From Escherichia coli (GTDB taxonomy: Bacteria; Pseudomonadota; Gammaproteobacteria; Enterobacterales; Enterobacteriaceae), in the NCBI RefSeq assembly GCF_003991155.1, contig NZ_CP031295.1: a DNA stretch of 64,000 nt. One strand, written 5' to 3'. Below, piece after piece: positions 7,973 through 45,616 of the stretch. Position numbers and translations under genes: made by a program. Numbering within the stretch: the stretch's first letter is position 1; each line of letters starts with the position of its first letter. The notes beneath the pieces are model-generated. The model saw only the letters and a program-made list of their open reading frames with translations. It was not told the origin of the DNA and made no database searches.

Positions 7973-8606
7973 GATGAAGCTGAGTATGAAATCTCTGGCA
8001 GCACTGCTGATGATGCTGAACGGGGCGGTTATGGCGTCAGAAAACGTGAACACTCCTGAAAACCGCCAGTTCCTGAAGCAGCAGGAAAATTTAAGCAGAC
8101 AACTGCGTGAAAACCTGACCATCAGCTGAAAGCCGGGCGGAGAAGCAGGTGCTGGAAACCCCTTCAGCGTTCAGATAACCATTTCTGGATGAGCTGGTTC
8201 GTAAACAGCAGGCTTCGCAGGACGGGAAACCCGGCAGGGTGCTCTGTATTTTGTGTCGTTTTCCATTCCCGAAGAGGGGCTGAAACGAATGCTGGGCGAA
8301 ACCCGGCACTACGGTATACCCGCCACACTGCGGGGCATGGTGAACAATGACCTGAAGACCACCGCTGAAGCCGTGCTGTCCCTGGTGAAAGACGGCGCGA
8401 CTGATGGTGTTCAGATCGACCCGACGCTGTTTTCACAGTACGGCATTCGCAGTGTACCGGCACTGGTGGTGTTCTGCAGTCATGGATACGACATCATCCG
8501 GGGAAACCTGCGGGTCGGCCAGGCGCTGGAGAAAGTGGCCGCCACGGGTGACTGCCGGCAGGTGGCTCATGATTTACTGGCAGGGAAAGGAGATTCCGGG
8601 AAATGA
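7973..8606 (+). pseudogene. trbC: trbC, disrupted by several frameshifts (signal-peptide N-terminus 7973-8129 stops early; TrbC-like C-terminus in another frame 8253-8606)
   Basis: N-terminal MMKLSMKSLAALLMMLNGAVMA ORF ends after 52 codons; recognisable TrbC C-terminal sequence resumes in a different frame; indels sit at homopolymer runs. Confidence 0.6.
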
Positions 8607-13646: not shown

Positions 13647-15019
13647 TGCCACGCATTAAACCTCTTCTGGTTCTTTGTGCCGCCTTACTGACGGTGACGC
13701 CTGCAGCGTCAGCGGATGTGAACAGCGACATGAATCAGTTCTTTAATAAGCTGGGATTTGCTTCCAATACCACACAGCCGGGCGTCTGGCAGGGGCAGGC
13801 CGCCGGCTATGCTTACGGTGGCTCCCTGTATGCCCGTACTCAGGTCAAAAATGTTCAGCTAATTTCCATGACGCTGCCGGATATCAATGCTGGATGTGGC
13901 GGCATCGACGCCTATCTCGGCTCGTTCAGTTTTATTAATGGTGAGCAGTTGCAGCGTTTTGTTAAGCAGATTATGAGCAATGCTGCCGGTTACTTTTTTG
14001 ACCTTGCCCTGCAGACAACGGTGCCGGAAATAAAAACCGCAAAAGACTTCGTGCAGAAAATGGCAAGCGACATTAACAGTATGAACCTCAGTTCCTGCCA
14101 GGCTGCACAGGGGATTATCGGCGGGCTTTTCCCCCGGACGCAGGTGTCCCAGCAAAAAGTCTGTCAGGACATTGCCGGTGAGAGCAATATTTTTGCTGAC
14201 TGGGCGGCTTCCCGGCAGGGATGTACCGTTGGCGGGAAATCTGACAGTGTCAGGGATAAAGCCAGCGACAAGGATAAGGAGCGGGTGACCAAAAACATCA
14301 ACATCATGTGGAATGCGCTTTCCAAAAACAGAATGTTTGACGGCAACAAAGAGCTGAAAGAATTTGTGATGACGCTGACCGGCTCACTGGTGTTTGGTCC
14401 CAACGGCGAAATCACACCGCTGTCAGCCAGAACCACTGACCGCTCAATTATCCGGGCCATGATGGAAGGCGGCACAGCAAAAATTTATCACTGCAACGAT
14501 TCTGATAAATGCCTGAAAGTGGTGGCAGACACACCGGTGACTATCAGCCGGGATAATGCACTGAAGTCTCAGATTACTAAACTTCTGGCCAGCATTCAGA
14601 ACAAGGCGGTCAGTGACACGCCTCTGGATGACAAGGAAAAAGGCTTTATTTCCAGTACCACCATCCCCGTCTTCAAATACCTGGTTGACCCGCAGATGCT
14701 CGGAGTTTCCAACAGCATGATTTACCAGCTGACGGACTATATCGGTTACGACATCCTGCTGCAGTACATTCAGGAGCTGATACAGCAGGCCCGGGCGATG
14801 GTGGCCACGGGAAATTATGACGAAGCGGTTATCGGACATATTAACGACAACATGAATGATGCCACCCGGCAGATTGCGGCGTTTCAGTCACAGGTGCAGG
14901 TACAGCAGGATGCGCTGCTGGTTGTCGATCGTCAGATGAGCTACATGCGTCAGCAGCTTTCCGCCCGCATGCTCAGTCGTTACCAAAACAACTATCACTT
15001 CGGAGGGAGCACGCGGTGA
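13643..15019 (+). CDS. traH: TraH pilus assembly protein
   Basis: 458-aa secreted protein, synteny. Confidence 0.85.
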   Translation: MMPRIKPLLVLCAALLTVTPAASADVNSDMNQFFNKLGFASNTTQPGVWQGQAAGYAYGGSLYARTQVKNVQLISMTLPDINAGCGGIDAYLGSFSFINGEQLQRFVKQIMSNAAGYFFDLALQTTVPEIKTAKDFVQKMASDINSMNLSSCQAAQGIIGGLFPRTQVSQQKVCQDIAGESNIFADWAASRQGCTVGGKSDSVRDKASDKDKERVTKNINIMWNALSKNRMFDGNKELKEFVMTLTGSLVFGPNGEITPLSARTTDRSIIRAMMEGGTAKIYHCNDSDKCLKVVADTPVTISRDNALKSQITKLLASIQNKAVSDTPLDDKEKGFISSTTIPVFKYLVDPQMLGVSNSMIYQLTDYIGYDILLQYIQELIQQARAMVATGNYDEAVIGHINDNMNDATRQIAAFQSQVQVQQDALLVVDRQMSYMRQQLSARMLSRYQNNYHFGGSTR

Positions 15020-17838
15020 ATGAAGTTTATGTGATTGCCGGTGGTGAGTGGTTGCGGAATAACCTGAACGCCATTGCCGCCTTTATGGGAACCAGGACGT
15101 GGGATTCCATTGAAAAAATTGCGCTCACATTGTCTGTTCTCGCGGTGGCCGTAATGTGGGTACAGCGGCACAACGTGATGGATTTGCTGGGCTGGGTGGC
15201 CGTATTTGTGCTTATCAGCCTGCTGGTTAATGTCCGCACATCGGTGCAGATTATTGATAACAGTGACCTGGTCAAAGTTCACCGGGTGGATAATGTGCCG
15301 GTCGGACTGGCGATGCCACTTTCACTGACGACCCGTATCGGGCATGCAATGGTGGCCAGTTACGAGATGATCTTCACGCAACCGGACAGTGTCACCTACA
15401 GCAAAACGGGGATGCTGTTTGGCGCAGAACTGGTATCAAAAAGCACCGACTTTTTGTCCCGCAATCCGGAAATCGCCAATCTTTTCCAGGATTATGTGCA
15501 GAACTGTGTTATGGGGGATATTTACCTGAACCACAAATACACGCTGGAGGAGCTGATGGCCTCCGCTGATCCCTACACGCTGATTTTTTCCCGCCCCAGC
15601 CCGCTGCGGGGCGTTTATGACAGCAATAATAATTTCGTAACCTGTAAGGACGCGTCGGTTTCGCTGAAAGACAAGCTGAATCTGGACACACAGAGTGGCG
15701 GAAAAACCTGGCATTATTATGCCCAGCAGCTATTTGGTGGACGCCCTGATCCTAACCTGCTGTTCAGTACGCTGATTGGCGACAGTTACAGTTACTTCTA
15801 TGGCTCAAGTAAATCAGCCAGCCAGATCATCCGCCAGAATGTCACCATCAATGCGCTGAAGGAGGGGATCACCAGTTATGCCGCACGTAATGGTGATTCG
15901 GCCAGCCTGGTGAATCTGGCCACCACGTCATCGATGGAGAAACAACGTCTGGCACATGTCTCCATCGGTCATGTGGCGATGCGGACACTGCCCATGACGC
16001 AGACCATCCTGACGGGGATCGCCATCGGTATTTTCCCGCTCCTGGTACTGGCGGCTGTATTCAACAAACTGACGCTGTCTGTCCTGAAAGGTTATGTGTT
16101 TGCCCTGATGTGGCTGCAGTCATGGCCACTCTTGTACGCCATTCTGAACAGTGCCATGACATTTTATGCGAAACAGAATGGTGCGCCGGTGGTGCTCTCT
16201 GAAATTTCACAGATACAACTGAAATACTCCGATCTGGCTTCCACTGCCGGGTATCTTTCCATGATGATCCCGCCATTATCCTGGATGATGGTCAGGGGGC
16301 TTGGGGCCGGATTTTCCAGTGTGTACAGCCATTTCGCTTCCTCTGCTATCAGCCCGACTGCCAGTGCGGCAGGTAGTGTGGTTGACGGTAATTACTCCTA
16401 CGGCAACATGCAGACGGAAAACGTGAACGGCTTCAGCTGGAGCACCAACAGCACCACGTCGTTTGGTCAGATGATGTACCAGACCGGCAGTGGCGCAACC
16501 GCCACACAGACCCGTGACGGTAATATGGTGATGGATGCAAGCGGAGCGATGTCCCGTTTACCGGTCGGTATCAATGCAACGCGTCAGATTGCAGTGGCAC
16601 AACAGGAAATGGCCCGGGAGGCGTCGAACAGAGCAGAAAGTGCCCTGCATGGTTTCAGCAGCAGTATTGCCAGTGCCTGGAACACGCTCAGTCAGTTTGG
16701 TTCTAACCGGGGGAGCAGTGACTCTGTCACCAGTGGTGCTGACAGTACGATGAGTGCACAGGACTCCATGATGGCCAGCCGTATGCGCAGTGCAGTGGAA
16801 AGCTATGCGAAGGCGCATAATATCAGTAATGAGCAGGCGACTCAGGAACTGGCATCCAGAAGTACGAGAGCTTCTGCCGGGATGTATGGAGATGCTCATG
16901 CTGAATGGGGGGTTAAACCTAAAATTCTTGGTGTTGGTGGAGGATTAGGCGTTAGAGGTGGTGGTCGGGCTGGCATTGACTGGAGTGATGATGATGCGCA
17001 TCAGGCCAGCAGTGGTTCACGGGCCAGCTATGATGCTCGTCATGATATTGACGCTAAAGCCAGTAAGGACTTTAAAGAGGCCAGCGATTACTTTACCAGT
17101 CGCAAAGTCAGTGAATCCGGCAGCCATACTGACAATAATGCTGATTCCCGGGTGGATCAACTGTCTGCAGCCCTGAATTCAGCGAAACAGAGTTACGACC
17201 AGTACACGACGAATATGACCCGCAGCCATGAATATGCTGAAATGGCATCCCGTACTGAAAGCATGAGTGGGCAGATGAGCGAAGATTTGTCGCAACAGTT
17301 TGCACAGTATGTGATGAAACACGCACCGCAGGATGCCGAAGCTATTCTGACAAATACCAGTTCGCCGGAGATTGCAGAACGCCGTCGGGCAATGGCCTGG
17401 TCTTTTGTGCAGGAACAGATACAGCCTGGTGTTGATAATGCCTGGCGGGAATCCCGTGGCGATATTGGTAAAGGAATGGAGAGCGTACCTTCGGGTGGAG
17501 GCAGTCAGGATATTATTGCTGACCATCAGGGACATCAGGCCATTATTGAGCAAAGAACGCAGGACAGTAATATCCGTAATGATGTAAAACATCAGGTTGA
17601 TAATATGGTCACAGAATATAAAGGGAATATAGGTGATACTCAGAACAGCATACGTGGCGAGGAAAATATTGTAAGAGGACAGTATTCTGAACTGCAGAAT
17701 CACCATAAAACAGAGGCATTATCTCAGAATAATAAATATAATGAAGAAAAGTCGGCTCAGGAAAGAATGCCCGGGGCTGACAGTCCACAGGAACTGATGA
17801 AAAGGGCAAAGGAGTATCAGGATAAGTATAAGCAATAA
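15016..17838 (+). CDS. traG: TraG mating-pair stabilisation/entry exclusion inner-membrane protein
   Basis: 940-aa ORF with polytopic N-terminus, overlaps traH stop. Confidence 0.85.
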   Translation: MNEVYVIAGGEWLRNNLNAIAAFMGTRTWDSIEKIALTLSVLAVAVMWVQRHNVMDLLGWVAVFVLISLLVNVRTSVQIIDNSDLVKVHRVDNVPVGLAMPLSLTTRIGHAMVASYEMIFTQPDSVTYSKTGMLFGAELVSKSTDFLSRNPEIANLFQDYVQNCVMGDIYLNHKYTLEELMASADPYTLIFSRPSPLRGVYDSNNNFVTCKDASVSLKDKLNLDTQSGGKTWHYYAQQLFGGRPDPNLLFSTLIGDSYSYFYGSSKSASQIIRQNVTINALKEGITSYAARNGDSASLVNLATTSSMEKQRLAHVSIGHVAMRTLPMTQTILTGIAIGIFPLLVLAAVFNKLTLSVLKGYVFALMWLQSWPLLYAILNSAMTFYAKQNGAPVVLSEISQIQLKYSDLASTAGYLSMMIPPLSWMMVRGLGAGFSSVYSHFASSAISPTASAAGSVVDGNYSYGNMQTENVNGFSWSTNSTTSFGQMMYQTGSGATATQTRDGNMVMDASGAMSRLPVGINATRQIAVAQQEMAREASNRAESALHGFSSSIASAWNTLSQFGSNRGSSDSVTSGADSTMSAQDSMMASRMRSAVESYAKAHNISNEQATQELASRSTRASAGMYGDAHAEWGVKPKILGVGGGLGVRGGGRAGIDWSDDDAHQASSGSRASYDARHDIDAKASKDFKEASDYFTSRKVSESGSHTDNNADSRVDQLSAALNSAKQSYDQYTTNMTRSHEYAEMASRTESMSGQMSEDLSQQFAQYVMKHAPQDAEAILTNTSSPEIAERRRAMAWSFVQEQIQPGVDNAWRESRGDIGKGMESVPSGGGSQDIIADHQGHQAIIEQRTQDSNIRNDVKHQVDNMVTEYKGNIGDTQNSIRGEENIVRGQYSELQNHHKTEALSQNNKYNEEKSAQERMPGADSPQELMKRAKEYQDKYKQ

Positions 17839-19366: not shown

Positions 19367-21507
19367 ATGAGTTTTAACGCAAAGGATATGACCCAGGGCG
19401 GTCAGATTGCGTCCATGCGTATCCGCATGTTCAGTCAGATCGCCAATATCATACTTTACTGCCTGTTTATTTTTTTCTGGATCCTAGTTGGTCTGGTTTT
19501 ATGGGTAAAAATAAGCTGGCAGACGTTTGTGAATGGCTGCATTTACTGGTGGTGCACCACGCTGGAAGGCATGCGGGATTTAATCAGGTCCCAGCCGGTC
19601 TATGAGATCCAGTATTACGGCAAAACCTTCCGGATGAACGCGGCTCAGGTACTGCATGATAAATATATGATCTGGTGCGGAGAGCAGCTATGGTCCGCAT
19701 TCGTTCTGGCCACAGTTGTGGCACTGGTTATTGCCTGATTACCTTCTTTGTTGTCTCACGGATTCTGGGGCGTCAGGGTAAACAACAGAGCGAAAATGAA
19801 GTCACAGGTGGTCGTCAGCTGACAGACAATCCGAAAGACGTTGCCCGGATGCTGAAAAAGACGGCAAGGACTCCGATATACGGATTGGCGACCTGCCGAT
19901 TATCCGGGATTCCGAAATCAGAACTTCTGTCTGCACGGCACGGTCGGGGCCGGTAAGTCGGAAGTTATCCGTCGTCTGGCCAACTACGCCCGTCAGCGTG
20001 GAGATATGGTGGTGATTTATGACCGTTCAGGGAATTTGTTAAAAGTTACTATGATCCCTCCATCGATAAAATCCTGAATCCGCTGGATGCCCGCTGTGCC
20101 GCACGGGATTTGTGGAAGAGTGCCTGACACAGCCAGATTTTGATAATACCGCAAATACTCTGATCCCGATGGGGACAAAAGAGGACCCGTTCTGGCAGGG
20201 TTCAGGACGTACCATTTTTGCGGAAGCGGCATACCTGATGCGTAATGACCCCAACCGCAGCTACAGCAAACTGGTGGACACACTGCTTTCCATCAAAATT
20301 GAAAAGCTGCGTACCTTCCTGCGTAATTCACCGGCGGCCAACCTGGTGGAAGAGAAAATCGAGAAAACGGCCATATCCATCCGTGCTGTGCTGACCAACT
20401 ACGTGAAAGCCATCCGTTACCTGCAGGGGATTGAGCATAACGGTGAGTCTTTACCATCCGTGACTGGATGCGTGGTGTCCGGAAGATCAGAAAAACGGCT
20501 GGCTGTTTATCTCGTCGAATGCCGACACCCATGCCTCCCTGAAGCCGGTGATCTCCATGTGGCTGTCCATTGCCATTCGTGGTCTGCTGGCAATGGGAGA
20601 AAACCGTAACCGTCGTGTGTGGTTTTCTGTGATGAGCTACCCACGTTACACAAACTGCCGGACTGGTGGAGATCCTGCCGGAAGCCCGTAAGTTCGGTGG
20701 CTGTTATGTGTTTGGTATCCAGTCTATGCCCAGCTGGAAGATATCTACGGTGAAAGCGGCTGCCACGCTGTTTGACGTCATGAACACCCGTGCCTTTTTC
20801 GTTCTCCCAGCCATAAGATTGCAGAGTTCGCTGCCGGTGAGATTGGTGAGAAAGAGCACCTGAAAGCCAGCGAGCAGTATTCCTACGGTGCTGATCCGGT
20901 ACGTGACGGGGTATCGACCGGTAAGGATATGGAGCGTCAGACGCTGGTCAGTTATTCCGACATTCAGTCTCTGCCGGATCTGACCTGTTATGTCACCCTG
21001 CCCGGACCGTATCCGGCAGTAAAACTCTCCCTGAAATATCAGACACGACCGAAGGTCGCTCCGGAGTTTATTCCGCGTGACATCAACCCGGAAATGGAGA
21101 ACCGTCTGAGTGCCGTACTTGCCGCAAGGGAAGCAGAAGGTCGTCAGATGGCCAGCCTCTTCGAACCGGATGTCCCGGAGGTTGTTTCCGGAGAAGACGT
21201 GACTCAGGCTGAACAGCCGCAACAGCCGGTGTCTCCTGCCATCAACGATAAGAAGTCAGATGCAGGTGTGAATGTTCCGGCAGGGGGGATCGAGCAGGAG
21301 CTGAAAATGAAACCGGAAGAAGAGATGGAACAGCAACTGCCACCCGGGATCAGTGAATCCGGTGAAGTGGTGGATATGGCCGTTTATGAGGCATGGCAAC
21401 GGGAGCAGAATCCGGATATCCAGCAGAAGATGCAGCGTCGTGAAGAGGTGAACATCAATGTGCACCGGGAGCGCGGGGAGGATGTTGAGCCGGGAGATGA
21501 TTTCTGA
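19367..21507 (+). pseudogene. traD: traD coupling protein, fragmented into at least 5 frames by small indels
   Basis: TraD N-terminus ([12 protein letters not shown]...), middle and QQP-rich C-terminus (...EPGDDF) are all present but in different frames (ORFs 19367-19738, 19675-19956, 20112-20609, 20666-20863, 20929-21507). Confidence 0.7.
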
Positions 21508-21515
21508 TGAACAGG

Positions 21516-21914
21516 TCAGCTCCAGTCTTCAATTCTCAGACCGTCCACACGTTCAAATTCCCGGGTGTTATTAGTCACAATAATCAGTCCCCGACTGCGG
21601 GCATGACCTGCGATCATTTGATCAAATGGCCCGACAGGGCGTCCCTGACGGGCAAGTTCTGCTCTTATCTGGCCGCTGTGTGTGGCTGCGGCAGCGTCGT
21701 AATCCAGAACATCAATGCGGGAAACAAATCCCTCGATCACAGCGAGATTACGTTCAGGCATCTGGCTTTTTTCTGCACCATATATCAGCTCCATCAGGGT
21801 GACCGAACTGATACACATTCTCCCCTGGTTCAGGTTAAAACGCTCCCTGACGCTGGCGGGTTTGTTCTTTATCGTGAAAATGCAGATGTTGGTATCGAGC
21901 ATAAACTTCAGCAT
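21516..21914 (-). CDS. vapC: VapC PIN-domain toxin
   Basis: 132 aa, N-terminal MLKFMLDTNICIF typical of PIN domains; overlaps upstream antitoxin gene. Confidence 0.8.
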   Translation of the reverse strand: MLKFMLDTNICIFTIKNKPASVRERFNLNQGRMCISSVTLMELIYGAEKSQMPERNLAVIEGFVSRIDVLDYDAAAATHSGQIRAELARQGRPVGPFDQMIAGHARSRGLIIVTNNTREFERVDGLRIEDWS

Positions 21915-22141
21915 CAGAATGACTCCCTTTCCTGCATGCCGGGCTGTTCCCTGTTATCCATAAAATCGGCGCTGACGTTGTGTCCGTCGAACCATTCGTC
22001 CCATGTCTCTCCGGCTGGCGTAATGATTCTGGTTCGTCCGACAGCAATCACTTCAACGCGTTTTACGTTTTCCGGCAATGCAACCGCTTTTGGCAGTCTG
22101 ACCGCCTGGCTGCGGTTGCTGAAAAATACGGTGGTTTCCAT
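21914..22141 (-). CDS. vapB: VapB antitoxin (AbrB/SpoVT-like)
   Basis: 75-aa ORF immediately upstream of and overlapping vapC. Confidence 0.75.
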   Translation of the reverse strand: METTVFFSNRSQAVRLPKAVALPENVKRVEVIAVGRTRIITPAGETWDEWFDGHNVSADFMDNREQPGMQERESF

Positions 22142-22222
22142 TATTTGCCTCCTTATGTGGATATGTCTTGTGTATATCCATTGTGGGATTGATACCGGGA
22201 TATGTCAAAGGGATATACGTTT

Positions 22223-25200
22223 ATGATGAGTATCGCGCAGGTCAGATCGGCCGGAAGTGCCGGTAACTATTATACCGACAAGGATAATTACTATGTGCTG
22301 GGCAGCATGGGAGAACGCTGGGCCGGCAGGGGGGCTGAACAGCTGGGGCTGCAGGGCAGCGTCGATAAGGATGTTTTTACCCGTCTTCTGGAGGGGAAGC
22401 TGCCGGACGGAGCGGATTTAAGCCGCATGCAGGATGGCAGTAATAAGCATCGTCCCGGCTACGACCTGACCTTCTCCGCCCCCAAAAGTGTCTCCGTGAT
22501 GGCCATGTTAGGCGGTGATAAACGTCTTATTGATGCACATAACCAGGCCGTGGATTTTGCTGTCCGTCAGGTGGAGGCGCTGGCTTCCACACGGGTTATG
22601 ACGGACGGACAGTCAGAAACGGTGCTGACCGGTAATCTGGTGATGGCACTGTTTAACCACGACACCAGTCGCGATCAGGAACCACAGTTACACACACATG
22701 CGGTAGTGGCCAATGTCACGCAGCATAACGGCGAGTGGAAGACATTGAGCAGTGACAAAGTGGGGAAAACGGGGTTCATTGAGAATGTGTACGCTAATCA
22801 GATTGCCTTCGGCAGGCTCTACCGGGAAAAACTGAAAGAGCAGGTTGAGGCGCTAGGCTATGAAACGGAAGTGGTTGGTAAGCACGGTATGTGGGAGATG
22901 CCGGGCGTACCGGTGGAGGCCTTCTCCGGACGCTCACAGGCTATCCGGGAGGCCGTCGGGGAAGACGCCTCGCTGAAATCCCGGGATGTGGCGGCACTGG
23001 ATACGCGAAAATCCAAACAGCACGTCGATCCTGAAGTCAGAATGGCTGAATGGATGCAGACGCTGAAGGAAACCGGGTTCGACATCCGGGCGTATCGTGA
23101 CGCGGCGGACCAACGGGCGGAGACCCGCACGCAGACGCCCGGACCCGCTTCACAGGACGGGCCGGATGTGCAGCAGGCGGTGACACAGGCCATTGCCGGA
23201 TTAAGTGAACGCAAAGTGCAGTTTACGTACACGGACGTGCTGGCCAGAACGGTCGGCATACTGCCGCCGGAAAATGGTGTGATTGAACGGGCACGCGCCG
23301 GTATCGATGAGGCCATCAGCCGTGAGCAGCTTATCCCCCTCGATCGTGAGAAGGGGCTGTTCACGTCCGGGATTCATGTGCTCGATGAGCTGTCAGTCCG
23401 GGCACTCAGTCGTGACATCATGAAACAGAACCGGGTGACCGTACATCCGGAGAAAAGTGTCCCCCGGACGGCCGGTTACAGCGATGCGGTCAGTGTTCTG
23501 GCACAGGATCGCCCGTCGCTGGCTATTGTGTCCGGGCAGGGCGGTGCAGCCGGGCAGCGTGAGCGGGTGGCGGAGCTGGTCATGATGGCCCGGGAGCAGG
23601 GGCGGGAGGTGCAGATTATCGCCGCTGACCGTCGCTCGCAGATGAACCTGAAGCAGGATGAACGGCTGTCCGGTGAGCTGATAACCGGACGTCGTCAGCT
23701 GCAGGAGGGCATGGCCTTCACGCCGGGCAATACTGTTATCGTTGACCAGGGCGAAAAACTCTCCCTGAAAGAGACGTTAACCCTGCTGGACGGTGCCGCA
23801 CGTCATAACGTACAGGTCCTGATAACCGACAGCGGGCAGCGAACCGGTACAGGCAGTGCACTGATGGCCATGAAAGATGCCGGGGTGAACACATATCGCT
23901 GGCAGGGGGGAGAACAGCGGCCGGCCACCATCATCAGTGAACCGGACCGTAATGTCCGCTATGCCCGGCTGGCAGGAGATTTTGCTGCCAGCGTGAAAGC
24001 CGGAGAAGAGAGCGTGGCACAGGTCAGCGGGGTACGGGAACAGGCCATACTGACACAGGCCATTCGCAGTGAGCTGAAAACACAGGGCGTGCTCGGACGC
24101 CCGGAGGTAACCATGACCGCCCTGTCGCCGGTCTGGCTGGACAGCCGGAGCCGTTATCTGCGGGATATGTACCGTCCGGGGATGGTGATGGAGCAGTGGA
24201 ACCCGGAGACACGCAGTCATGACCGCTATGTTATCGACCGGGTGACGGCGCAGAGTAACAGCCTGACCCTGCGGGATGCGCAGGATGAAACGCAGGTGGT
24301 GCGTATTTCCTCCCTGGACAGCAGCTGGTCGCTGTTCCGGCCGGAAAAAATGCCGGTGGCAGACGGCGAGCGACTGAGGGTGACAGGGAAAATTCCCGGA
24401 CTCCGCGTCTCCGGCGGTGACCGCCTGCAGGTGGCATCCGTCAGTGAAGATGCGATGACGGTTGTTGTGCCGGGGCGGGCTGAACCGGCCTCCCTGCCTG
24501 TGAGCGATTCACCATTCATGGCACTGAAGCTGGAGAACGGCTGGGTGGAAACGCCCGGGCATTCCGTCAGCGACAGTGCGAAGGTTTTTGCCTCCGTCAC
24601 ACAGATGGCAATGGACAACGCCACCCTGAACGGTCTGGCCCGCAGCGGTCGTGATGTCCGGCTGTATTCCTCACTGGATGAAACCCGTACTGCGGAAAAA
24701 CTTGCCCGCCATCCCTCCTTTACGGTGGTTTCTGAGCAGATAAAGGCGCGTGCCGGTGAGACATTGCTGGAAACCGCTATCAGTCTGCAGAAAACCGGGC
24801 TTCACACGCCGGCACAGCAGGCTATTCATCTGGCGCTTCCTGTGGTGGAAAGTAAAAACCTGGCCTTCAGCATGGTGGACCTGCTGACAGAGGCGAAGTC
24901 GTTTGCTGCAGAAGGAACCAGTTTTACTGAACTGGGAGGGGAAATCAATGCGCAGATAAAACGCGGTGATTTACTGTATGTGGATGTGGCAAAAGGCTAT
25001 GGCACAGGCCTGCTGGTTTCCCGTGCGTCGTATGAGGCAGAAAAGAGCATTCTTCGCCATATTCTCGAAGGTAAGGAGGCGGTCACGCCACTGATGGAGA
25101 GAGTACCTGGCGAACTCATGGAGAAACTGACATCAGGACAGCGTGCCGCTACCCGCATGATACTGGAAACGTCCGACCGTTTCACGGTGGTGCAGGGCTA

Positions 25201-27493
25201 TGCCGGTGTGGGTAAGACCACACAGTTCCGGGCGGTGATGTCAGCCGTGAACATGCTGCCGGAGAGTGAACGTCCCCGTGTCGTGGGGCTGGGGCCCACG
25301 CACCGTGCGGTCGGTGAGATGCGCAGCGCCGGCGTGGATGCACAGACGCTGGCGTCCTTTCTGCATGACACGCAGCTGCTGCAGCGCAGCGGAGAAACGC
25401 CGAATTTCAGCAACACGCTGTTCCTGCTCGATGAGAGCTCTATGGTGGGCAATACCGACATGGCACGGGCATACGCCCTGATTGCGGCCGGTGGCGGTCG
25501 TGCCGTGGCCAGTGGTGACACGGACCAGTTGCAGGCCATCGCGCCCGGTCAGCCTTTCCGTCTCCAGCAGACGCGCAGTGCTGCCGATGTGGTCATCATG
25601 AAGGAGATTGTGCGTCAGACGCCGGAACTGCGGGAGGCGGTATACAGCCTGATTAACCGGGATGTGGAAAGGGCACTGTCCGGGCTTGAGAGTGTGAAAC
25701 CGTCTCAGGTTCCCCGTCAGGAGGGCGCATGGGCACCGGAGCACTCCGTGACGGAGTTCAGTCACAGCCAGGAAGCGAAACTGGCAGAAGCGCAGCAGAA
25801 GGCGATGCTGAAAGGCGAGGCTTTCCCGGATATCCCCATGACACTGTATGAAGCCATTGTCCGCGACTATACCGGCAGGACACCGGAAGCACGGGAGCAG
25901 ACGCTGATTGTCACACACCTGAATGAGGACCGGCGCGTACTGAACAGCATGATTCATGATGCACGGGAAAAGGCCGGTGAGCTGGGCAAAGAGCAGGTCA
26001 TGGTGCCTGTCCTGAACACAGCGAATATACGTGACGGAGAACTGCGTCGTCTCTCCACCTGGGAGAATAACCCGGATGCCCTTGCCCTGGTGGATAGTGT
26101 GTATCACCGGATTGCCGGTATCAGCAAGGATGACGGGCTGATAACCCTGGAGGATGCGGAAGGTAACACGCGGCTGATTTCGCCCCGGGAGGCGGTGGCT
26201 GAAGGCGTCACACTGTACACCCCGGACACCATCCGGGTGGGAACCGGTGACCGGATGCGCTTCACGAAGAGTGACCGGGAGCGAGGTTATGTGGCCAACA
26301 GCGTCTGGACGGTGACAGCGGTTTCCGGTGACAGTGTCACGCTGTCGGACGGACAGCAGATCCGGGTGATTCGCCCAGGTCAGGAGCGGGCAGAGCAACA
26401 TATTGACCTGGCTTATGCCATCACCGCCCACGGTGCGCAGGGGGCAAGTGAAACCTTTGCCATCGCGCTTGAAGGCACGGAAGGTAACCGGAAACTGATG
26501 GCCGGCTTTGAGTCAGCCTACGTGGCCCTGTCGCGTATGAAGCAGCATGTGCAGGTGTACACCGATAACCGTCAGGGCTGGACGGATGCCATCAACAATG
26601 CCGTACAGAAAGGAACTGCCCACGATGTGCTAGAGCCGAAATCGGACCGGGAGGTCATGAATGCAGAGCGGCTGTTCAGTACGGCGCGGGAGCTGCGGGA
26701 CGTGGTGGCCGGCCGTGCCGTTCTCCGTCAGGCAGGGCTGGCCGGGGGAGACAGTCCTGCACGGTTTATTGCACCCGGGCGCAAATATCCGCAGCCGTAT
26801 GTGGCACTGCCGGCTTTTGACCGTAACGGCAAGTCAGCTGGTATCTGGCTGAACCCGCTGACCACGGATGACGGAAACGGGCTGCGGGGCTTCAGTGGTG
26901 AAGGCCGGGTGAAAGGCAGCGGGGATGCGCAGTTCGTGGCCCTGCAGGGCAGCCGTAACGGAGAGAGCCTGCTGGCTGATAATATGCAGGATGGTGTCCG
27001 GATTGCCCGTGATAATCCTGACAGCGGTGTGGTGGTAAGAATCGCCGGTGAAGGTCGTCCGTGGAATCCCAGAACCATCACCGGTGGTCGCGTGTGGGGG
27101 GATATCCCGGACAACAGCGTTCAGCCGGGAGCCGGAAATGGCGAACCGGTCACGGCAGAGGTACTGGCACAGCGGCAGGCTGAAGAGGCCATCCGCCGTG
27201 AAACGGAACGCCGTGCGGATGAAATTGTCCGTAAAATGGCAGAGAACAAACCTGACCTGCCGGACGGCAAAACAGAGCAGGCTGTCAGGGATATTGCCGG
27301 GCTGGAGCGTGACCGGTCTGCCATATCTGAACGGGAAGCCGCGCTGCCGGAGAGTGTACTGCGTGAACCACAACGGGTGCGGGAAGCGGTCCGGGAGGTT
27401 GCCCGGGAAAATCTGCTGCAGGAGCGACTGCAGCAGATGGAGCGGGATATGGTTCGTGACCTGCAGAAAGAGAAAACCCTGGGCGGAGACTGA
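22223..27493 (+). CDS. traI: TraI relaxase/helicase (start set at MMSIAQVRSAGS)
   Basis: 1756 codons; N-terminal relaxase motif region, helicase Walker A GYAGVGKT. Confidence 0.9.
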   Translation: MMSIAQVRSAGSAGNYYTDKDNYYVLGSMGERWAGRGAEQLGLQGSVDKDVFTRLLEGKLPDGADLSRMQDGSNKHRPGYDLTFSAPKSVSVMAMLGGDKRLIDAHNQAVDFAVRQVEALASTRVMTDGQSETVLTGNLVMALFNHDTSRDQEPQLHTHAVVANVTQHNGEWKTLSSDKVGKTGFIENVYANQIAFGRLYREKLKEQVEALGYETEVVGKHGMWEMPGVPVEAFSGRSQAIREAVGEDASLKSRDVAALDTRKSKQHVDPEVRMAEWMQTLKETGFDIRAYRDAADQRAETRTQTPGPASQDGPDVQQAVTQAIAGLSERKVQFTYTDVLARTVGILPPENGVIERARAGIDEAISREQLIPLDREKGLFTSGIHVLDELSVRALSRDIMKQNRVTVHPEKSVPRTAGYSDAVSVLAQDRPSLAIVSGQGGAAGQRERVAELVMMAREQGREVQIIAADRRSQMNLKQDERLSGELITGRRQLQEGMAFTPGNTVIVDQGEKLSLKETLTLLDGAARHNVQVLITDSGQRTGTGSALMAMKDAGVNTYRWQGGEQRPATIISEPDRNVRYARLAGDFAASVKAGEESVAQVSGVREQAILTQAIRSELKTQGVLGRPEVTMTALSPVWLDSRSRYLRDMYRPGMVMEQWNPETRSHDRYVIDRVTAQSNSLTLRDAQDETQVVRISSLDSSWSLFRPEKMPVADGERLRVTGKIPGLRVSGGDRLQVASVSEDAMTVVVPGRAEPASLPVSDSPFMALKLENGWVETPGHSVSDSAKVFASVTQMAMDNATLNGLARSGRDVRLYSSLDETRTAEKLARHPSFTVVSEQIKARAGETLLETAISLQKTGLHTPAQQAIHLALPVVESKNLAFSMVDLLTEAKSFAAEGTSFTELGGEINAQIKRGDLLYVDVAKGYGTGLLVSRASYEAEKSILRHILEGKEAVTPLMERVPGELMEKLTSGQRAATRMILETSDRFTVVQGYAGVGKTTQFRAVMSAVNMLPESERPRVVGLGPTHRAVGEMRSAGVDAQTLASFLHDTQLLQRSGETPNFSNTLFLLDESSMVGNTDMARAYALIAAGGGRAVASGDTDQLQAIAPGQPFRLQQTRSAADVVIMKEIVRQTPELREAVYSLINRDVERALSGLESVKPSQVPRQEGAWAPEHSVTEFSHSQEAKLAEAQQKAMLKGEAFPDIPMTLYEAIVRDYTGRTPEAREQTLIVTHLNEDRRVLNSMIHDAREKAGELGKEQVMVPVLNTANIRDGELRRLSTWENNPDALALVDSVYHRIAGISKDDGLITLEDAEGNTRLISPREAVAEGVTLYTPDTIRVGTGDRMRFTKSDRERGYVANSVWTVTAVSGDSVTLSDGQQIRVIRPGQERAEQHIDLAYAITAHGAQGASETFAIALEGTEGNRKLMAGFESAYVALSRMKQHVQVYTDNRQGWTDAINNAVQKGTAHDVLEPKSDREVMNAERLFSTARELRDVVAGRAVLRQAGLAGGDSPARFIAPGRKYPQPYVALPAFDRNGKSAGIWLNPLTTDDGNGLRGFSGEGRVKGSGDAQFVALQGSRNGESLLADNMQDGVRIARDNPDSGVVVRIAGEGRPWNPRTITGGRVWGDIPDNSVQPGAGNGEPVTAEVLAQRQAEEAIRRETERRADEIVRKMAENKPDLPDGKTEQAVRDIAGLERDRSAISEREAALPESVLREPQRVREAVREVARENLLQERLQQMERDMVRDLQKEKTLGGD

Positions 27494-34129: not shown

Positions 34130-34780
34130 ATGATTCAAACACGTAATCAATATCTGCAGTTTATGCTGGTTATGCTGGCTGCATGGGGCATTAGTTGGGG
34201 AGCCAGATTTGTCATGGAGCAGGCCGTTCTGCTTTATGGATCAGGAAAAAACTATTTGTTCTTCAGTCATGGTACTGTTCTGATGTACCTGCTGTGTGTT
34301 TTCCTGGTATACCGCCGTTGGATAGCTCCGCTACCGGTCGTTGGTCAGCTGCGCAACGTTGGCGTACCGTGGCTGGTCGGTGCGATGGCCGTGGTGTATG
34401 TCGGTGTATTTCTGCTCGGTAAGGCGCTGGCTCTGCCTGCTGAGCCATTTATGACGAAACTTTTTGCCGATAAGTCCATACCTGACGTGATCCTGACGTT
34501 GCTGACCATCTTTATCCTTGCCCCGTTGAATGAGGAAACGCTGTTCCGGGGGATTATGCTGAACGTCTTCCGTTCACGGTACTGCTGGACGATGTGGCTG
34601 GGGGCGCTGATAACGTCGTTGTTGTTCGTCGCCGCGCACAGCCAGTATCAGAACCTGCTGACACTGGCAGAACTGTTCGGTGGGTTGATTACATCAGTGG
34701 CCAGGATCAGAAGTGGTGGCCTGCTGCTGCCGGTATTGCTGCATATGGAAGCAACCACGCTGGGTTTACTGTTTGGTTGA
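34130..34780 (+). CDS. CPBP-family intramembrane protease (tir-like)
   Basis: 216-aa polytopic protein with EExxxR-like (NEETLFRG) and HxxxH-like motifs. Confidence 0.65.
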   Translation: MIQTRNQYLQFMLVMLAAWGISWGARFVMEQAVLLYGSGKNYLFFSHGTVLMYLLCVFLVYRRWIAPLPVVGQLRNVGVPWLVGAMAVVYVGVFLLGKALALPAEPFMTKLFADKSIPDVILTLLTIFILAPLNEETLFRGIMLNVFRSRYCWTMWLGALITSLLFVAAHSQYQNLLTLAELFGGLITSVARIRSGGLLLPVLLHMEATTLGLLFG

Positions 34781-36127: not shown

Positions 36128-36722
36128 ATTGGGGTCTGACGCTCAGTGGAACGAAAACTCACGTTAAGCAACGTTTTCTGCCTCTGACGCCTCTTTTAAT
36201 GGTCTCAGATGTCCTTTGGTCACCAGTTCTGCCAGCGTGAAGGAATAATGGCCGAGCATATTGATATGTCCGTGGCAAAGCGGGGAGAGGCGTGCGATAT
36301 CTTCATCATTCAGTGTTTCACCCTGCGCCCGGAGATGATCCAGGGCTGCCTGCATATAAATAGTGTTCCATAACACGACGGCGTTAGTGACCAGCCCCAG
36401 TGCGCCCAGTTGATCTTCCTGACCGTCGGTATATCGTTTTCTTATCTCACCTTTTTGACCGTGACAGATGGCTCTGGCAACGGCATGGCGACTTTCTCCC
36501 CGATTAAGCTGGGTCAGAATGCGCCGGCGGTAATCTTCATCATCAATATAATTAAGCAGATACAGCGTTTTGTTGATGCGCCCCACTTCAATGATTGCCT
36601 GAGTCAGTCCGGAAGGACGTTCACTTTTCAGCAATGAACGGACCAGCACTGAAGCCTGTACTTTGCCCAGCTTCAGGGAGCCAGCGGTCCGGATCATTTC
36701 GTCCCACTGAAGGACTATTTTT
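36128..36722 (-). mobile_element. Tn3-family (Tn3/Tn2-like) 38-bp IR plus tnpA 3' fragment, truncated by IS26
   Basis: GGGGTCTGACGCTCAGTGGAACGAAAACTCACGTTAAG at 36128-36165; minus-strand ORF encodes a Tn3-type transposase C-terminus. Confidence 0.7.
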
Positions 36723-37542
36723 GGCACTGTTGCAAAGTTAGCGATGAGGCAGCCTTTTGTCTTATTCAAAGGCCTTACATTTCAAAAACTCTGCTTACCA
36801 GGCGCATTTCGCCCAGGGGATCACCATAATAAAATGCTGAGGCCTGGCCTTTGCGTAGTGCACGCATCACCTCAATACCTTTGATGGTGGCGTAAGCCGT
36901 CTTCATGGATTTAAATCCCAGCGTGGCGCCGATTATCCGTTTCAGTTTGCCATGATCGCATTCAATCACGTTGTTCCGGTACTTAATCTGTCGGTGTTCA
37001 ACGTCAGACGGGCACCGGCCTTCGCGTTTGAGCAGAGCAAGCGCGCGACCATAGGCGGGCGCTTTATCCGTGTTGATGAATCGCGGGATCTGCCACTTCT
37101 TCACGTTGTTGAGGATTTTACCCAGAAACCGGTATGCAGCTTTGCTGTTACGACGGGAGGAGAGATAAAAATCGACAGTGCGGCCCCGGCTGTCGACGGC
37201 CCGGTACAGATACGCCCAGCGGCCATTGACCTTCACGTAGGTTTCATCCATGTGCCACGGGCAAAGATCGGAAGGGTTACGCCAGTACCAGCGCAGCCGT
37301 TTTTCCATTTCAGGCGCATAACGCTGAACCCAGCGGTAAATCGTGGAGTGATCGACATTCACTCCGCGTTCAGCCAGCATCTCCTGCAGCTCACGGTAAC
37401 TGATGCCGTATTTGCAGTACCAGCGTACGGCCCACAGAATGATGTCACGCTGAAAATGCCGGCCTTTGAATGGGTTCATGTGCAGCTCCATCAGCAAAAG
37501 GGGATGATAAGTTTATCACCACCGACTATTTGCAACAGTGCC
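36723..37542 (-). mobile_element. tnp26: IS26 copy 1 (820 bp; tnp26 36775-37479, minus strand)
   Basis: 14-bp terminal inverted repeats GGCACTGTTGCAAA at both ends; intact 234-aa transposase from MNPFKGRHF. Confidence 0.9.
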
Positions 37543-39043
37543 ACTTCGACGACTACCTGCTGCCGGCCGAGAAGTTCGCCGCACTCAAGCGCGAGCAGGC
37601 CCTGCCCCTGGCGATCAACCCGAACAGCGACCAGTACCTGGAAGAGCGTTTGCAGCTGCTGGACGAGCAGTTGGCCACCGTCACCCGCCTGGCCAAGGAC
37701 AACGAGCTGCCCGATGCCATCCTCACCGAGTCAGGGCTGAAAATCACCCCGCTGGATGCGGCGGTGCCGGATCGGGCGCAGGCGCTGATCGACCAAACCA
37801 GCCAGTTACTGCCGCGCATCAAGATCACCGAACTGCTGATGGACGTGGACGACTGGACGGGCTTCAGCCGCCACTTCACCCACTTGAAGGACGGGGCCGA
37901 GGCCAAAGACAGGACGTTGCTGCTGTCCGCAATCCTCGGTGATGCGATCAACCTCGGGCTGACCAAGATGGCCGAGTCGAGCCCCGGCCTGACCTACGCC
38001 AAGCTGTCCTGGCTGCAAGCCTGGCACATCCGCGACGAAACCTATTCGGCGGCCTTGGCCGAGCTGGTCAACCACCAGTATCGCCACGCCTTTGCCGCCC
38101 ACTGGGGCGACGGCACGACCTCATCCTCCGATGGCCAGCGCTTCCGCGCGGGTGGCCGGGGCGAGAGCACCGGGCACGTCAACCAAGTACGGTAGCGAGC
38201 GGGACGGCTGTTCTATACCCATATCTCCGACCAGTACGCGCCGTTCAGCACCCGCGTGGTGAATGTCGGCGTCCGCGATTCCACCTATGTGCTCGACGGC
38301 CTGCTGTACCACGAGTCCGACCTGCGGATCGAGGCACTACACCGACACGGCCGGCTTCACCGATCACGTCTTTGCCCTGATGCACCTGCTAGGCTTCCGC
38401 TTCGCGCCGCGCATCCGCGACCTCGGCGAAACCAAGCTGTACGTGCCGCAGGGCGTGCAAGCTACCCGACGTTGCGCCCGCTGATCGGCGGCACCCTGAA
38501 CATCAAGCACGTGCGTGCCCACTGGGACGACATCCTGCGCGGCCAGCTCGATCAAGCAGGGCACCGTCACCGCCTCGCTGATGCTGCGCAAGCTCGGCAG
38601 CTACCCGCGCCAGAACGGACTGGCCGTGGCCCTGCGCGAGCTGGGCCGGATCGAGCGCACGCTGTTCATCCTGGACTGGCTGCAAAGTGTTGAACTGCGC
38701 CGCCGCGTGCATGCCGGCCTGAACAAAGGTGAGGCGCGCAACTCGCTGGCGAGGCGGTGTTCTTCAACCGCCTTGGGGAAATCAGGATCGGAGCTTCGAG
38801 CAGCAGCGCTACGGCCAGCGGCCTCAACACGGTGACGGCGGCTATCGTGCTGTGGAACACGGGTACACGGAACGCCACCCGGGGTTGGTCGAGGCCGGCA
38901 AGCCGGTGGACGGCGAGCTGCTGCAATTCCTGTCGCCGCTGGGCTGGGAGCACATCAACCTAACCGGCGATTACGTCTGGCGGCAGAGCCGCAGACTGGA
39001 AGACGGGAAGTTTCGGCCCTTACGGATGCCCGGAAAACCTTAG
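37543..39043 (+). pseudogene. tnpA: Tn1721/Tn21-subgroup tnpA 3' fragment (copy A), 5'-truncated by IS26, with several frameshifts
   Basis: Tn3-family transposase sequence spread over at least 4 frames; ends at the Tn1721 IR. Confidence 0.75.
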
Positions 39044-39076
39044 CGTACGATTTTTTCCGAATTCTGCGGGCTCCCC
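39039..39076 (+). repeat. Tn1721 38-bp terminal inverted repeat
   Basis: Reverse complement of GGGGAGCCCGCAGAATTCGGAAAAAATCGTACGCTAAG. Confidence 0.7.
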
Positions 39077-39374
39077 TATCTCATCTGCGCAAGGCAGAAC
39101 GTGAAGACGGCCGCCCTGGACCTCGCCCGCGAGCGCCAGGCGCACGAGGCCGGCGCGCGGACCCGCGCCACGGCCCACGAGCGGACGCCGCAGCAGGAGC
39201 GCCAGAAGGCCGCCAGAGAGGCCGAGCGCGGCCGTGAGGCTTGGACGCTAGGGCAGGGCATGAAAAAGCCCGTAGCGGGCTGCTACGGGCGTCTGACGCG
39301 GTGGAAAGGGGGAGGGGATGTTGTCTACATGGCTCTGCTGTAGTGAGTGGGTTGCGCTCCGGCAGCGGTCCTGA

Positions 39375-40025
39375 TCAATCGTCACCCTTTCTCGGTCCTT
39401 CAACGTTCCTGACAACGAGCCTCCTTTTCGCCAATCCATCGACAATCACCGCGAGTCCCTGCTCGAACGCTGCGTCCGGATCGGCTTCGTCGAAGGCGTC
39501 TATCGCGGCCCGCAACAGCGGCGAGAGCGGAGCCTGTTCAACGGTGCCGCCGCGCTCGCCGGCATCGCTGTCGCCGGCCTGCTCCTCAAGCACGGCCCCA
39601 ACAGTGAAGTAGCTGATTGTCATCAGCGCATTGACGGCGTCCCCGGCCGAAAAACCCGCCTCGCAGAGGAAGCGAAGCTGCGCGTCGGCCGTTTCCATCT
39701 GCGGTGCGCCCGGTCGCGTGCCGGCATGGATGCGCGCGCCATCGCGGTAGGCGAGCAGCGCCTGCCTGAAGCTGCGGGCATTCCCGATCAGAAATGAGCG
39801 CCAGTCGTCGTCGGCTCTCGGCACCGAATGCGTATGATTCTCCGCCAGCATGGCTTCGGCCAGTGCGTCGAGCAGCGCCCGCTTGTTCCTGAAGTGCCAG
39901 TAAAGCGCCGGCTGCTGAACCCCCAACCGTTCCGCCAGTTTGCGTGTCGTCAGACCGTCTACGCCGACCTCGTTCAACAGGTCCAGGGCGGCACGGATCA
40001 CTGTATTCGGCTGCAACTTTGTCAT
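39375..40025 (-). CDS. tetR: TetR(A) tetracycline repressor
   Basis: 216 aa from MTKLQPNTVIRAALDLLNEVG; divergent from tetA. Confidence 0.9.
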   Translation of the reverse strand: MTKLQPNTVIRAALDLLNEVGVDGLTTRKLAERLGVQQPALYWHFRNKRALLDALAEAMLAENHTHSVPRADDDWRSFLIGNARSFRQALLAYRDGARIHAGTRPGAPQMETADAQLRFLCEAGFSAGDAVNALMTISYFTVGAVLEEQAGDSDAGERGGTVEQAPLSPLLRAAIDAFDEADPDAAFEQGLAVIVDGLAKRRLVVRNVEGPRKGDD

Positions 40026-40029
40026 GCTT

Positions 40030-40085
40030 GACACTTTATCACTGATAAACATAATATGTCCACCAACTTATCAGTGATAAAGAAT
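40030..40085 (+). promoter_or_regulatory. tet operator palindromes in tetR-tetA intergenic region
   Basis: ttatcactgataa and cttatcagtgataaaga palindromic half-sites between divergent tetR and tetA. Confidence 0.55.
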
Positions 40086-40130
40086 CCGCGCGTTCAATCG
40101 GACCAGCGGAGGCTGGTCCGGAGGCCAGAC

Positions 40131-41330: not shown

Positions 41331-41468
41331 TCGTGGAAACGATAGGCCTATGCCATGCGGGTCAAGGCGACTTCCGGCAAGCTATACGCGCCCTAGGAGT
41401 GCGGTTGGAACGTTGGCCCAGCCAGATACTCCCGATCACGAGCAGGACGCCGATGATTTGAAGCGCAC

Positions 41469-42245: not shown

Positions 42246-42382
42246 GCGATTACAAGACCTCCGCTACGGCGATGGGTTTTTGAGAGTTGCAGGCGCCGCG
42301 ATGACCGCACCCTGACTTGGACTGGCCCTGCCTCGCACCAATCCACCTGCGGCTATGGCCGCGATCATGCGAGGCCCGAAAA

Positions 42383-42720: not shown

Positions 42721-42739
42721 TCGCCGGCGGCGCATGTTC

Positions 42740-44320
42740 ATACTCTTCGCCGAGCGAAAAGTTGGGGAACAGCACGGGCCGGCCGCGCAAGGCGTGCTGG
42801 CAGCCGTGCAGACCCTGCGTGAGATGAACGCCGACAACCTGCGCAAGGTGCCGGCCGATGCACCCACGGCCTTCATCAAGCCGCGCTGGAAGCCGCTGGT
42901 GATCACCCCGGAAGGCCTCGACCGGAAATTCTACGAAATCTGCGCCCTGTCCGAGCTGAAGAACGCCCTGCGCTCCGGCGACATCTGGGTCAAGGCTCGC
43001 GGCAGTTCCGCGACTTCGACGACTACCTGCTGCCGGCCGAGAAGTTCGCCGCACTCAAGCGCGAGCAGGCCTGCGGCGATCAACCCGAACAGCGACCAGT
43101 ACACGGAAGAGCGTTTGCAGCTGCTGGACGAGCAGTTGGCCACCGTCACCCGCGGCCAGGACGGCAAGCTGCCCGATGCCATCCTCACCGAGTCAGGGCT
43201 GAAAATCACCCCGCTGGATGCGTGCCGGATCGGCGCAGGCGCTGATCGACCAAACCAGCCAGGTTACTGCCGCGCATCAAGATCACCGAACTGCTGATGG
43301 ACGTGGACGACTGGACGGGCTTCAGCCGCCACTTCACCCACTTGAAGGACGGGCCGAGGCCAAAGACAGGACGTTGCTGCTGTCCGCAATCCTCGGTGAT
43401 GCGATCAGCCCGGGCTGACCAAGATGGCCGAGCCGAGCCCGGCCTGACTGCCAAGCTGTCGTCGCGGCAAGCACGGCACATCCGCGACGAAACCTATTCG
43501 GCGGCCTTGGCCGAGCTGGTCAACCACCAGTATCGCCACGCCTTTGCCGCCCACTGGGGCGACGGCGACCTCATCCTCCGATGGCCAGCGCTTCCGCGCG
43601 GGTGGCCGGGCGAGAGCACCGGCACGTCAACCCGAATACGGTAGCGAGCCGGGACGGCTGTTCTACCCATATCTCCGACCAGTACGCGCCGTTCAGCACC
43701 CGCGTGGTGAATGTCGGCGTCCGCGATTCCACCTATGTGCTCGACGGCCTGCTGTACCACGGTCCGACCTGCGGATCGAGGAGCACTACACCGACACGGC
43801 CGGCCCGCGATCACGTCTTTTGCCCTGATGCACCTGCTGGGCTTCCGCTTCGCGCCGCGCATCCGCGACCTCGGCGAAACCAAGCTGTACGTGCCGCAGG
43901 GCGTGCAAGCCTACCCGACGTTGCGCCCGCTGATCGGCGGCACCCTGAACATCAAGCACGTGCGTGCCCACTGGGACGACATCCTGCGCCTGGCCAGCTC
44001 GATCAAGCAGGGCACCGTCACCGCCTCGCTGATGCTGCGCAAGCTCGGCAGCTACCCGCCAGAACGGACTGGCCGTGGCCCTGCGCGAGCTGGGCGGATC
44101 GAGCACGCTGTTCATCTGGACTGGCTGCAAAGTGTTGAACTGCGCCGCCGCGTGCATGCCGGCCTGAACAAAGGTGAGGCGCGCAACTCGCTGGCGGGGG
44201 TGTTCTTCAACCGCCTTGGGGAAATCAGGGATCGGAGCTTCGAGCAGCAGCGCTACCGGGCCAGCGGCCTCAACCTGGTGACGGCGGCTATCGTGCTGTG
44301 GAACACGGTGTACCTGGAAC
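42740..44320 (+). pseudogene. tnpA: Second copy (copy B) of Tn1721-type tnpA 3' segment, heavily affected by indels/substitutions, 3'-truncated by IS26
   Basis: Same transposase sequence as 37543-39043 but extends further 5' and is broken into many frames; 5' boundary approximate. Confidence 0.65.
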
Positions 44321-45140
44321 GGCACTGTTGCAAAGTTAGCGATGAGGCAGCCTTTTGTCTTATTCAAAGGCCTTACATTTCAAAAACTCTGCTTACCAGG
44401 CGCATTTCGCCCAGGGGATCACCATAATAAAATGCTGAGGCCTGGCCTTTTGCGTAGTGCACGCATCACCTCAATACCTTTGATGGTGGCGTAAGCCGTC
44501 TTCATGGATTTAAATCCCAGCGTGGCGCCGATTATCCGTTTCAGTTTGCCATGATCGCATTCAATCACGTTGTTCCGGTACTTAATCTGTCGGTGTTCAA
44601 CGTCAGACGGCACACGGCCTTCGCGTTTGAGCAGAGCAAGCGCGCGACCATAGGCGGGCGCTTTATCCGTGTTGATGAATCGCGGGATCTGCCACTTCTT
44701 CACGTTGTTGAGGATTTTACCCAGAAACCGGTATGCAGCTTTGCTGTTACGACGGGAGGAGAGATAAAATCGACAGTGCGGCCCCGGCTGTCGACGGCCC
44801 GGTACAGATACGCCCAGCGGCCATTGACCTTCACGTAGGTTTCATCCATGTGCCACGGGCAAAGATCGGAAGGGTTACGCCAGTACCAGCGCAGCCGTTT
44901 TTCCATTTCAGGCGCATAACGCTGAACCCAGCGGTAAATCGTGGAGTGATCGACATTCACTCCGCGTTCAGCCAGCATCTCCTGCAGCTCACGGTAACTG
45001 ATGCCGTATTTGCAGTACCAGCGTACGGCCCACAGAATGATGTCACGCTGAAAATGCCGGCCTTTGAATGGGTTCATGTGCAGCTCCATCAGCAAAAGGG
45101 GATGATAAGTTTATCACCACCGACTATTTGCAACAGTGCC
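44321..45140 (-). mobile_element. tnp26: IS26 copy 2 with frameshifted transposase
   Basis: Terminal IRs present; tnp26 split into ORFs 44419-44703 and 44700-45095 by single-base indels relative to copies 1 and 3. Confidence 0.8.
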
Positions 45141-45479: not shown

Positions 45480-45616
45480 AATTTATGAGTAAAGGATTAT
45501 GTCCACGATAAGCACCTGGGTCGATTCCTGGGAGGCGGCCATGAGGGTAGGGAAGCGCCGTCCCGTCAAGTCAGCGTAATGCTCTGCCAGTGTTACAACC
45601 AATTAACCAATTCTGA

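Follow-up and report, generated by a model that had tools for sequence, protein, structure and literature searches.

The traD gene, which encodes the type IV coupling protein of F-type plasmids, is located on the plus strand at 19367..21507 of the window, i.e., of the whole stretch of 64 kb that was analyzed. TraD is an ATPase of the inner membrane and delivers the relaxosome-bound DNA strand to the pore used in conjugation. From traB to a point past repA, 37.5 kb of the window align collinearly with plasmid pCREC-544_1 (NZ_CP024827) at 99.6% identity, and traD occupies its F-type tra operon position between traT and vapCB-traI. The large neighboring genes traG (15016-17838, 940 aa) and traI (22202-27493) are intact, as the preliminary description of this DNA had stated. 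The vapBC toxin-antitoxin pair that separates traD from traI (21516-22141, minus strand) is likewise present in pBCE049-1 and pCREC-544_1 and is missing from NZ_CP037904, where traD abuts traI. A 239-aa open reading frame on the plus strand (21507-22226), antisense to vapBC, was taken as spurious.

A full-length traD is missing from the list of open reading frames between 18.5 and 22.5 kb, and the gene is represented there by fragments at 19367-19738, 19675-19956, 20112-20609, and 20929-21507 and by several smaller ones. In the plasmid records, 3991 entries contained one place covering at least 80% of the traD region, and among the matches listed the annotation was that of a type IV coupling protein TraD. 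The region was aligned to four intact traD genes, namely those of pBCE049-1, pCREC-544_1, the E. coli LHM10-1 plasmid unnamed1 (NZ_CP037904), and pNCYU-25-82-3 (CP042630.1). This alignment revealed 12 indel events comprising 13 bases between 19730 and 20800, all of which were deletions (insertions 0); 11 events removed one base and one removed two. Relative to the best-matching allele, the first six events are TTT>TT at 19730/1, A6>A5 at 19854/5, CC>C at 19918/9, G4>G3 at 20029/30, GG>G at 20117/8, and T4>T3 at 20447-52, and the last six are G3>G2 at 20480/1, T5>T4 at 20622/3, CC>C inside a CCTGG motif at 20662/3, CC>C at 20723/4, GAGA>GA at 20751/2, and CC>C at 20799/800. Positions 20448 and 20452 had at one stage been considered unique substitutions, which was rejected since realignment to the LHM10-1 allele yields the simple T4>T3 contraction. 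As a consequence of the 12 deletions the gene is written in 13 segments that rotate through all three reading frames, where at least five frames had been claimed previously. The example of five A residues where the frame needs six was exact (A6>A5 at 19855), and the proposed coincidence of the frame transitions with shortened homopolymers is correct in that every event is a run contraction, but only six of the 12 events lie in runs of three or more bases.

All 11 single-base deletions fall in runs of at least two bases, an outcome with a chance probability of ~3e-4 given that ~48% of the bases in this stretch of traD sit in such runs; the twelfth event is the GAGA>GA contraction. However, run context alone does not discriminate between error and mutation, since real indels favor homopolymers too. 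The clustering of the events is pronounced, with a density of 11.2 per kb over 1071 bp versus a single event in 36.3 kb of collinear pCREC-544_1 backbone (conditional binomial p = 4e-18). Outside the damaged patches, this backbone accordingly contains one indel in 36.3 kb, and most of its 1-kb bins contain no substitution. Programmed frameshifting was considered and rejected, as there are 12 shifts, no recoding signals, and a continuous frame in thousands of relatives.

When the 13 missing bases were filled in silico, a single open reading frame of 717 codons without internal stops or IS elements was obtained, in agreement with the ~717-codon frame that had been predicted. The repaired protein scored 1640.7 bits against NF010254 (cut-off 1221; residues 1-717) and 834.6 bits against TIGR02759 (cut-off 521). 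Its Walker A motif GTVGAGKS spans residues 192-199, the respective codons (19937..19960, plus strand) being intact and out of frame as written, while the Walker B motif FFCDELP is located at residue 422, with the corresponding DNA present at 20625, and the C-terminal tail ending in EDVEPGDDF is retained. Every residue of the repaired protein matches one of the four natural alleles, except for two changes, W132R and W248R, at Dcm sites. The repaired gene resembles the traD genes of pCREC-544_1 (WP_000009324.1, 717 aa) and of LHM10-1 unnamed1 in its position within the order traT-traD-vapCB-traI, its length, its Walker A and B motifs, and its tail, whereas the copy as written differs from the traD of F-type IncF plasmids by the lack of 13 bases in 12 places and by W132R and W248R. 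A single uninterrupted frame is thus not present in the sequence as given, which we attribute to sequence error and not to the gene. From the sequence it appears almost certain that the window encodes an ordinary, well-known F-type TraD coupling protein and that the gene is intact in the real plasmid. Among relatives, the Q/P-rich C-terminal part of TraD naturally varies in length without loss of frame (717, 723, 726, and 741 aa); one example is a 72-bp difference from pBCE049-1 in the 3' part of the gene at ~21212.

The five-way alignment also showed that traD is an allelic mosaic. The gene is pCREC-544_1-like up to 19680, resembles the LHM10-1 and pNCYU-25-82-3 alleles (hereafter LHM10-1-like) at 19681-~20117, is again pCREC-544_1-like at 20135-20446, LHM10-1-like at 20447-20841, and pCREC-544_1-like thereafter. 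The deletions are confined to the two LHM10-1-like islands. The first island (19681..20117, plus strand), embedded in the pCREC-544_1-like backbone, contains five one-base deletions and two changes of CCTGG to CACGG (19757-61 and 20102-06), and the second (20447..20841, plus strand) contains seven deletion events removing eight bases, including the CC>C contraction inside CCTGG at 20662. The 310-bp pCREC-544_1-like stretch between them (20135..20446, plus strand) contains no indel, and every marker from 20135 to 20375 corresponds to the pCREC-544_1 allele. The islands themselves are best read as real sequence, because all of their allele markers match natural alleles exactly. The exact alternation of the two allele types was found in no other record searched among plasmids and E. 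coli genomes, and owing to this mosaic no natural plasmid with exactly the repaired allele was found among them. The best nucleotide identity of the unrepaired traD region was 98.1% (4584 matching plasmid and 3296 matching E. coli records), and for the repaired 1400-nt segment the best match reached 98.9% among plasmids and 99.1% among E. coli genomes. The compared plasmids often have mosaic tra genes, and the traD mosaic may have arisen by a rare natural recombination, or evidence from two alleles may in part have been mixed in it. We also considered whether errors mark every segment unlike the pCREC-544_1-like backbone, as reference-guided polishing would produce, and rejected this as a general rule since a long LHM10-1-like stretch at ~4.9-7.8 kb is clean and free of indels.

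CCWGG is the methylation motif of Dcm. The only substitutions in the traD patch that are absent from natural alleles are the two tandem CCTGG>CACGG changes at 19757-61 and 20102-06. The same change occurs at 38828, 38866, 43102, and 43472, giving six in the window, all of them inside indel patches. Among the 93 CCWGG sites in the 37.5-kb alignment, non-allelic alterations are likewise restricted to indel patches (8133, 8184, 19757, 20102, and 34678), and the deletion at 20662 falls in a CCTGG site of the allele type shared by pBCE049-1 and LHM10-1. In one transposon patch, CCWGG columns account for nine of the 22 differing columns while making up 3.5% of all columns, and in the other for 14 of 59 (2.0% of all columns), an enrichment of at least 10-fold among differing columns. 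Similar alterations are present in a separate public assembly, pNCYU-25-82-3 (CP042630.1), which has CACGG at the same traD codon (W132R) and a change at the second site (W248R), and in which six of 12 CCWGG sites are altered in 7.4 kb. Unlike in the window, however, only three small indels are present in 7.4 kb of this assembly, whose traD stays in frame over 726 aa. With default models, ~70% of the consensus errors in Oxford Nanopore (ONT) assemblies of an enterobacterial genome were found in Dcm motifs, followed by homopolymer-length errors (Wick et al., 2019; PMC6591954). The recurrence of one and the same double substitution at six sites of a methylation motif, combined with run contractions in the direction of deletion only, bears the mark of basecalling and not of mutation. 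The pNCYU-25-82-3 record also contains an annotated 65-aa "traI" fragment and carries errors of its own.

Contrary to what had been assumed, the damage is not local to traD. Across the window, 60 deletions and seven insertions were counted (binomial p = 1.3e-11), concentrated in five stretches of 1-2 kb, and the same type of damage was found in at least four patches besides traD, affecting trbC, two Tn1721-type tnpA fragments, and one IS26 copy. The trbC gene (7974..8606, plus strand), which the preliminary description does not mention, has lost six bases in five deletions at 8109-8229. Two of these deletions fall inside CCTGG sites; the net change is in frame, and three stop codons result. 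The repaired TrbC is 100% identical to TrbC of the LHM10-1 plasmid (NZ_CP037904), and these deletions, too, lie inside an LHM10-1-like island. A small error spot at 34679..34682, with a net loss of three bases at CCTGG in a gene for a CPBP-family intramembrane protease, probably represents one more isolated error at a Dcm site. A G-run at 11775, close to the 3' end of trbA, has six G residues in the window and five in pBCE049-1 and pCREC-544_1, which could reflect either true variation in tract length or an erroneous insertion.

Beyond 37.5 kb, the window was compared with pO83_CORR and CP059905. A Tn1721-type tnpA fragment occurs twice in this part of the window, at 37540-39076 and ~42780-44321, adjoining IS26 copies and tet(A). 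The error patch in the first copy (38185..39005) contains 12-13 deletions and five altered sites out of 11 CCWGG, with CCTGG>CACGG twice, while the patch in the second copy (42994..44199) contains nearly all of the 27 deletions and two insertions found in the alignment of 39076-44321 and all of the altered CCWGG sites of that alignment (seven of 21), again with CCTGG>CACGG twice. Multi-base deletions occur in these transposon patches. Identity to the reference is 98.6-98.9% for each copy, but between the two copies it is only 94.7%, with 35 gap openings; 17 differences are unique to one copy, 62 to the other, and three are shared. These copy-specific differences point to independent noise and not to inherited mutation. 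In the IS26 copy at 44319-45140, four to five small indels are located at 44319..44770, whereas the other IS26 stretches (36721-37542, 45141-45480, and 46520-47340) are free of indels, indicating that sequence quality varies between copies of one repeat. Two further single-base observations concern this comparison: at 61402, between pifC and the next gene, the window has one G more than pO83_CORR and CP059905.1, which creates a CCAGG site, and the public record CP059905.1 carries errors of its own, lacking single bases that are common to pO83_CORR and the window.

The preliminary description had left a choice between a real loss of transfer and a low-quality consensus. The latter is strongly favored, because the run contractions are deletions only, the miscalls recur at Dcm motifs, and the gene is otherwise undamaged, and real loss finds little support. 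We are highly confident that the broken traD is a sequencing and assembly artefact consisting of residual nanopore-type consensus errors, and that the frameshifts are not present in the plasmid. The patches combine an excess of deletions, a stereotyped Dcm miscall, homopolymer-length errors, and repeat copies that differ from each other, and they resemble known residual nanopore errors in their deletion bias, run contractions, CCWGG miscalls, patchiness, concentration in repeats, and disagreement between copies. They would represent short patches of long-read nanopore-type consensus left in an assembly that otherwise has short-read accuracy. Short-read polishing is unreliable in repeats, where errors often remain (Wick and Holt, 2022; PMC8812927), and Dcm-motif and homopolymer errors persist in repeats or in the long-read bridges of hybrid assemblies (Wick et al., 2017, PMC5481147; Wick et al., 2019; Wick and Holt, 2022). 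The heaviest error patches of the window sit in sequence repeated within it, and these published limits of polishing and bridging (PMC8812927, PMC5481147) apply directly to the transposon and IS26 patches.

The traD and trbC patches differ from known residual errors in repeats in that they are not repeated within the 64-kb window; self-comparison of the window revealed no second copy of traD or of trbC, so that a second copy, if any, would be elsewhere in the genome. We propose that these two patches arose where short reads were insufficient to resolve short allele islands, probably because a second, nearly identical tra region was present in the same sample. The preliminary description had raised this possibility by suggesting that another replicon with a traD might have confounded polishing; the confinement of the traD and trbC errors to islands unlike the backbone and the position of the heaviest patches in repeated sequence agree with it. 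In the islands, the raw long-read consensus may have been used, as Unicycler does where there is no graph path, or short-read polishing may have failed. The restriction of the errors to short LHM10-1-like islands within a pCREC-544_1-like backbone is the pattern expected if a second tra region had given rise to bubbles or dead ends. Some islands and repeats were nevertheless spared, namely the LHM10-1-like stretch at ~4.9-7.8 kb and the three IS26 stretches, which counts against the explanation.

Alternative origins of the deletions were also evaluated. Homopolymer-length deletions are typical as well of flow-based platforms and of low-coverage PacBio consensus, and a traD mosaic matched by no other record (best 99.1% for the repaired segment) would fit a chimeric consensus of two alleles. 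On these grounds the errors could stem from Ion Torrent, 454, or PacBio CLR reads, or from a consensus collapsed from two co-resident traD alleles. However, flow-based and PacBio consensus is not expected to turn CCTGG into CACGG. It is nanopore basecalling of Dcm-methylated DNA that produces CCWGG-specific miscalls (PMC6591954), and against a chimera stand the exact match of all island markers to natural alleles and the frequency of mosaic tra genes, which leaves a non-nanopore artefact with a small residual chance. A still smaller one is assigned to real pseudogenization of traD and trbC by repeated frameshifts, which would render the plasmid non-self-transmissible or mobilizable only with a helper. 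This would account for the absence of an intact traD from the sequence as given, real indels also prefer short runs, and natural inactivation of traD does exist in other assemblies. Among assemblies sharing a 192-aa C-terminal TraD fragment, the lesions comprise a large tra deletion ending in traD (L007, L010-L012), an insertion of an IS21-family element (L009), and a single 1-bp indel (L008). All matches to this fragment came from other plasmids, whose lesions are single and differ from those of the window. For the 123-aa N-terminal traD fragment, the protein index contained no exact match. The six natural lesions examined consist of one event each, not 12. In the patch, by contrast, 12 indels are accompanied by substitutions at Dcm motifs only, and its 36-kb flanks are essentially identical to a relative. 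In mutation accumulation experiments with E. coli, substitutions outnumber indels about tenfold, and therefore 12 indels without an ordinary substitution are not credible. Of the damage that would accompany a decayed pseudogene, none was found in traD once the mosaic was taken into account, i.e., the restored frame contains no stop, and non-Dcm substitutions and IS elements are absent. None of the deletions is shared with relatives among the 4584 plasmid and 3296 E. coli records (best identity 98.1%), and the alignment to the four intact alleles shows each of them as a gap. Finally, there is no mutational rationale for the six tandem CT>AC changes, which are all identical and all located at Dcm motifs, and the same type of error affects transposon and IS copies and differs between them.

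A local shower of -1 frameshifts introduced by the error-prone polymerase DinB (Pol IV) during double-strand-break repair in the tra region would be the mutational counterpart of this pattern. The DinB pathway typically gives -1 deletions in short mononucleotide runs and is fed by the nicking of F plasmids by TraI, and break repair by DinB is the only biology known to us that makes local -1 clusters. In E. coli, DinB-dependent mutation reportedly peaks within the first kilobases beside the break (PMC3607216). However, such events are rare per repair, and 12 within 1 kb with clean flanks are far outside anything reported. DinB also fails to explain the CT>AC changes at Dcm sites, the multi-base deletions in the transposon patches, and the lesions that differ between repeat copies. 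That the deletions are real and that an F-type plasmid lost traD and trbC in bursts through some localized -1 shower, for instance by DinB break repair, is barely conceivable, and for DinB activity in the tra region as the specific source the probability would be close to nil.

With residual nanopore-type errors as the preferred explanation, the main value of the finding, which is otherwise ordinary, is a quality flag for the record that extends to trbC and the transposon region. Taken at face value, a resistance and colicin plasmid would look non-conjugative, with traD and trbC as pseudogenes, and use of the uncorrected record would lead to an overcount of pseudogenes and to distorted allele typing, for instance because of the false W132R and W248R. 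Patches of deletion-only frameshifts, the change of CCWGG to CACGG, and clean flanks are together warning signs of unpolished nanopore bridges in a hybrid assembly, and such patches tend toward repeats and short allele islands.

A scan of species-representative genomes for the exact 20-mer of the F-type traD Walker A region yielded only two stray contigs, a 30-kb contig of a "Lachnospiraceae bacterium" MAG (CAAGKF010000127.1) and a 211-bp contig of Acinetobacter idrijaensis (JQCU01000483.1), both of which look like mis-binned or contaminating enterobacterial plasmid DNA.
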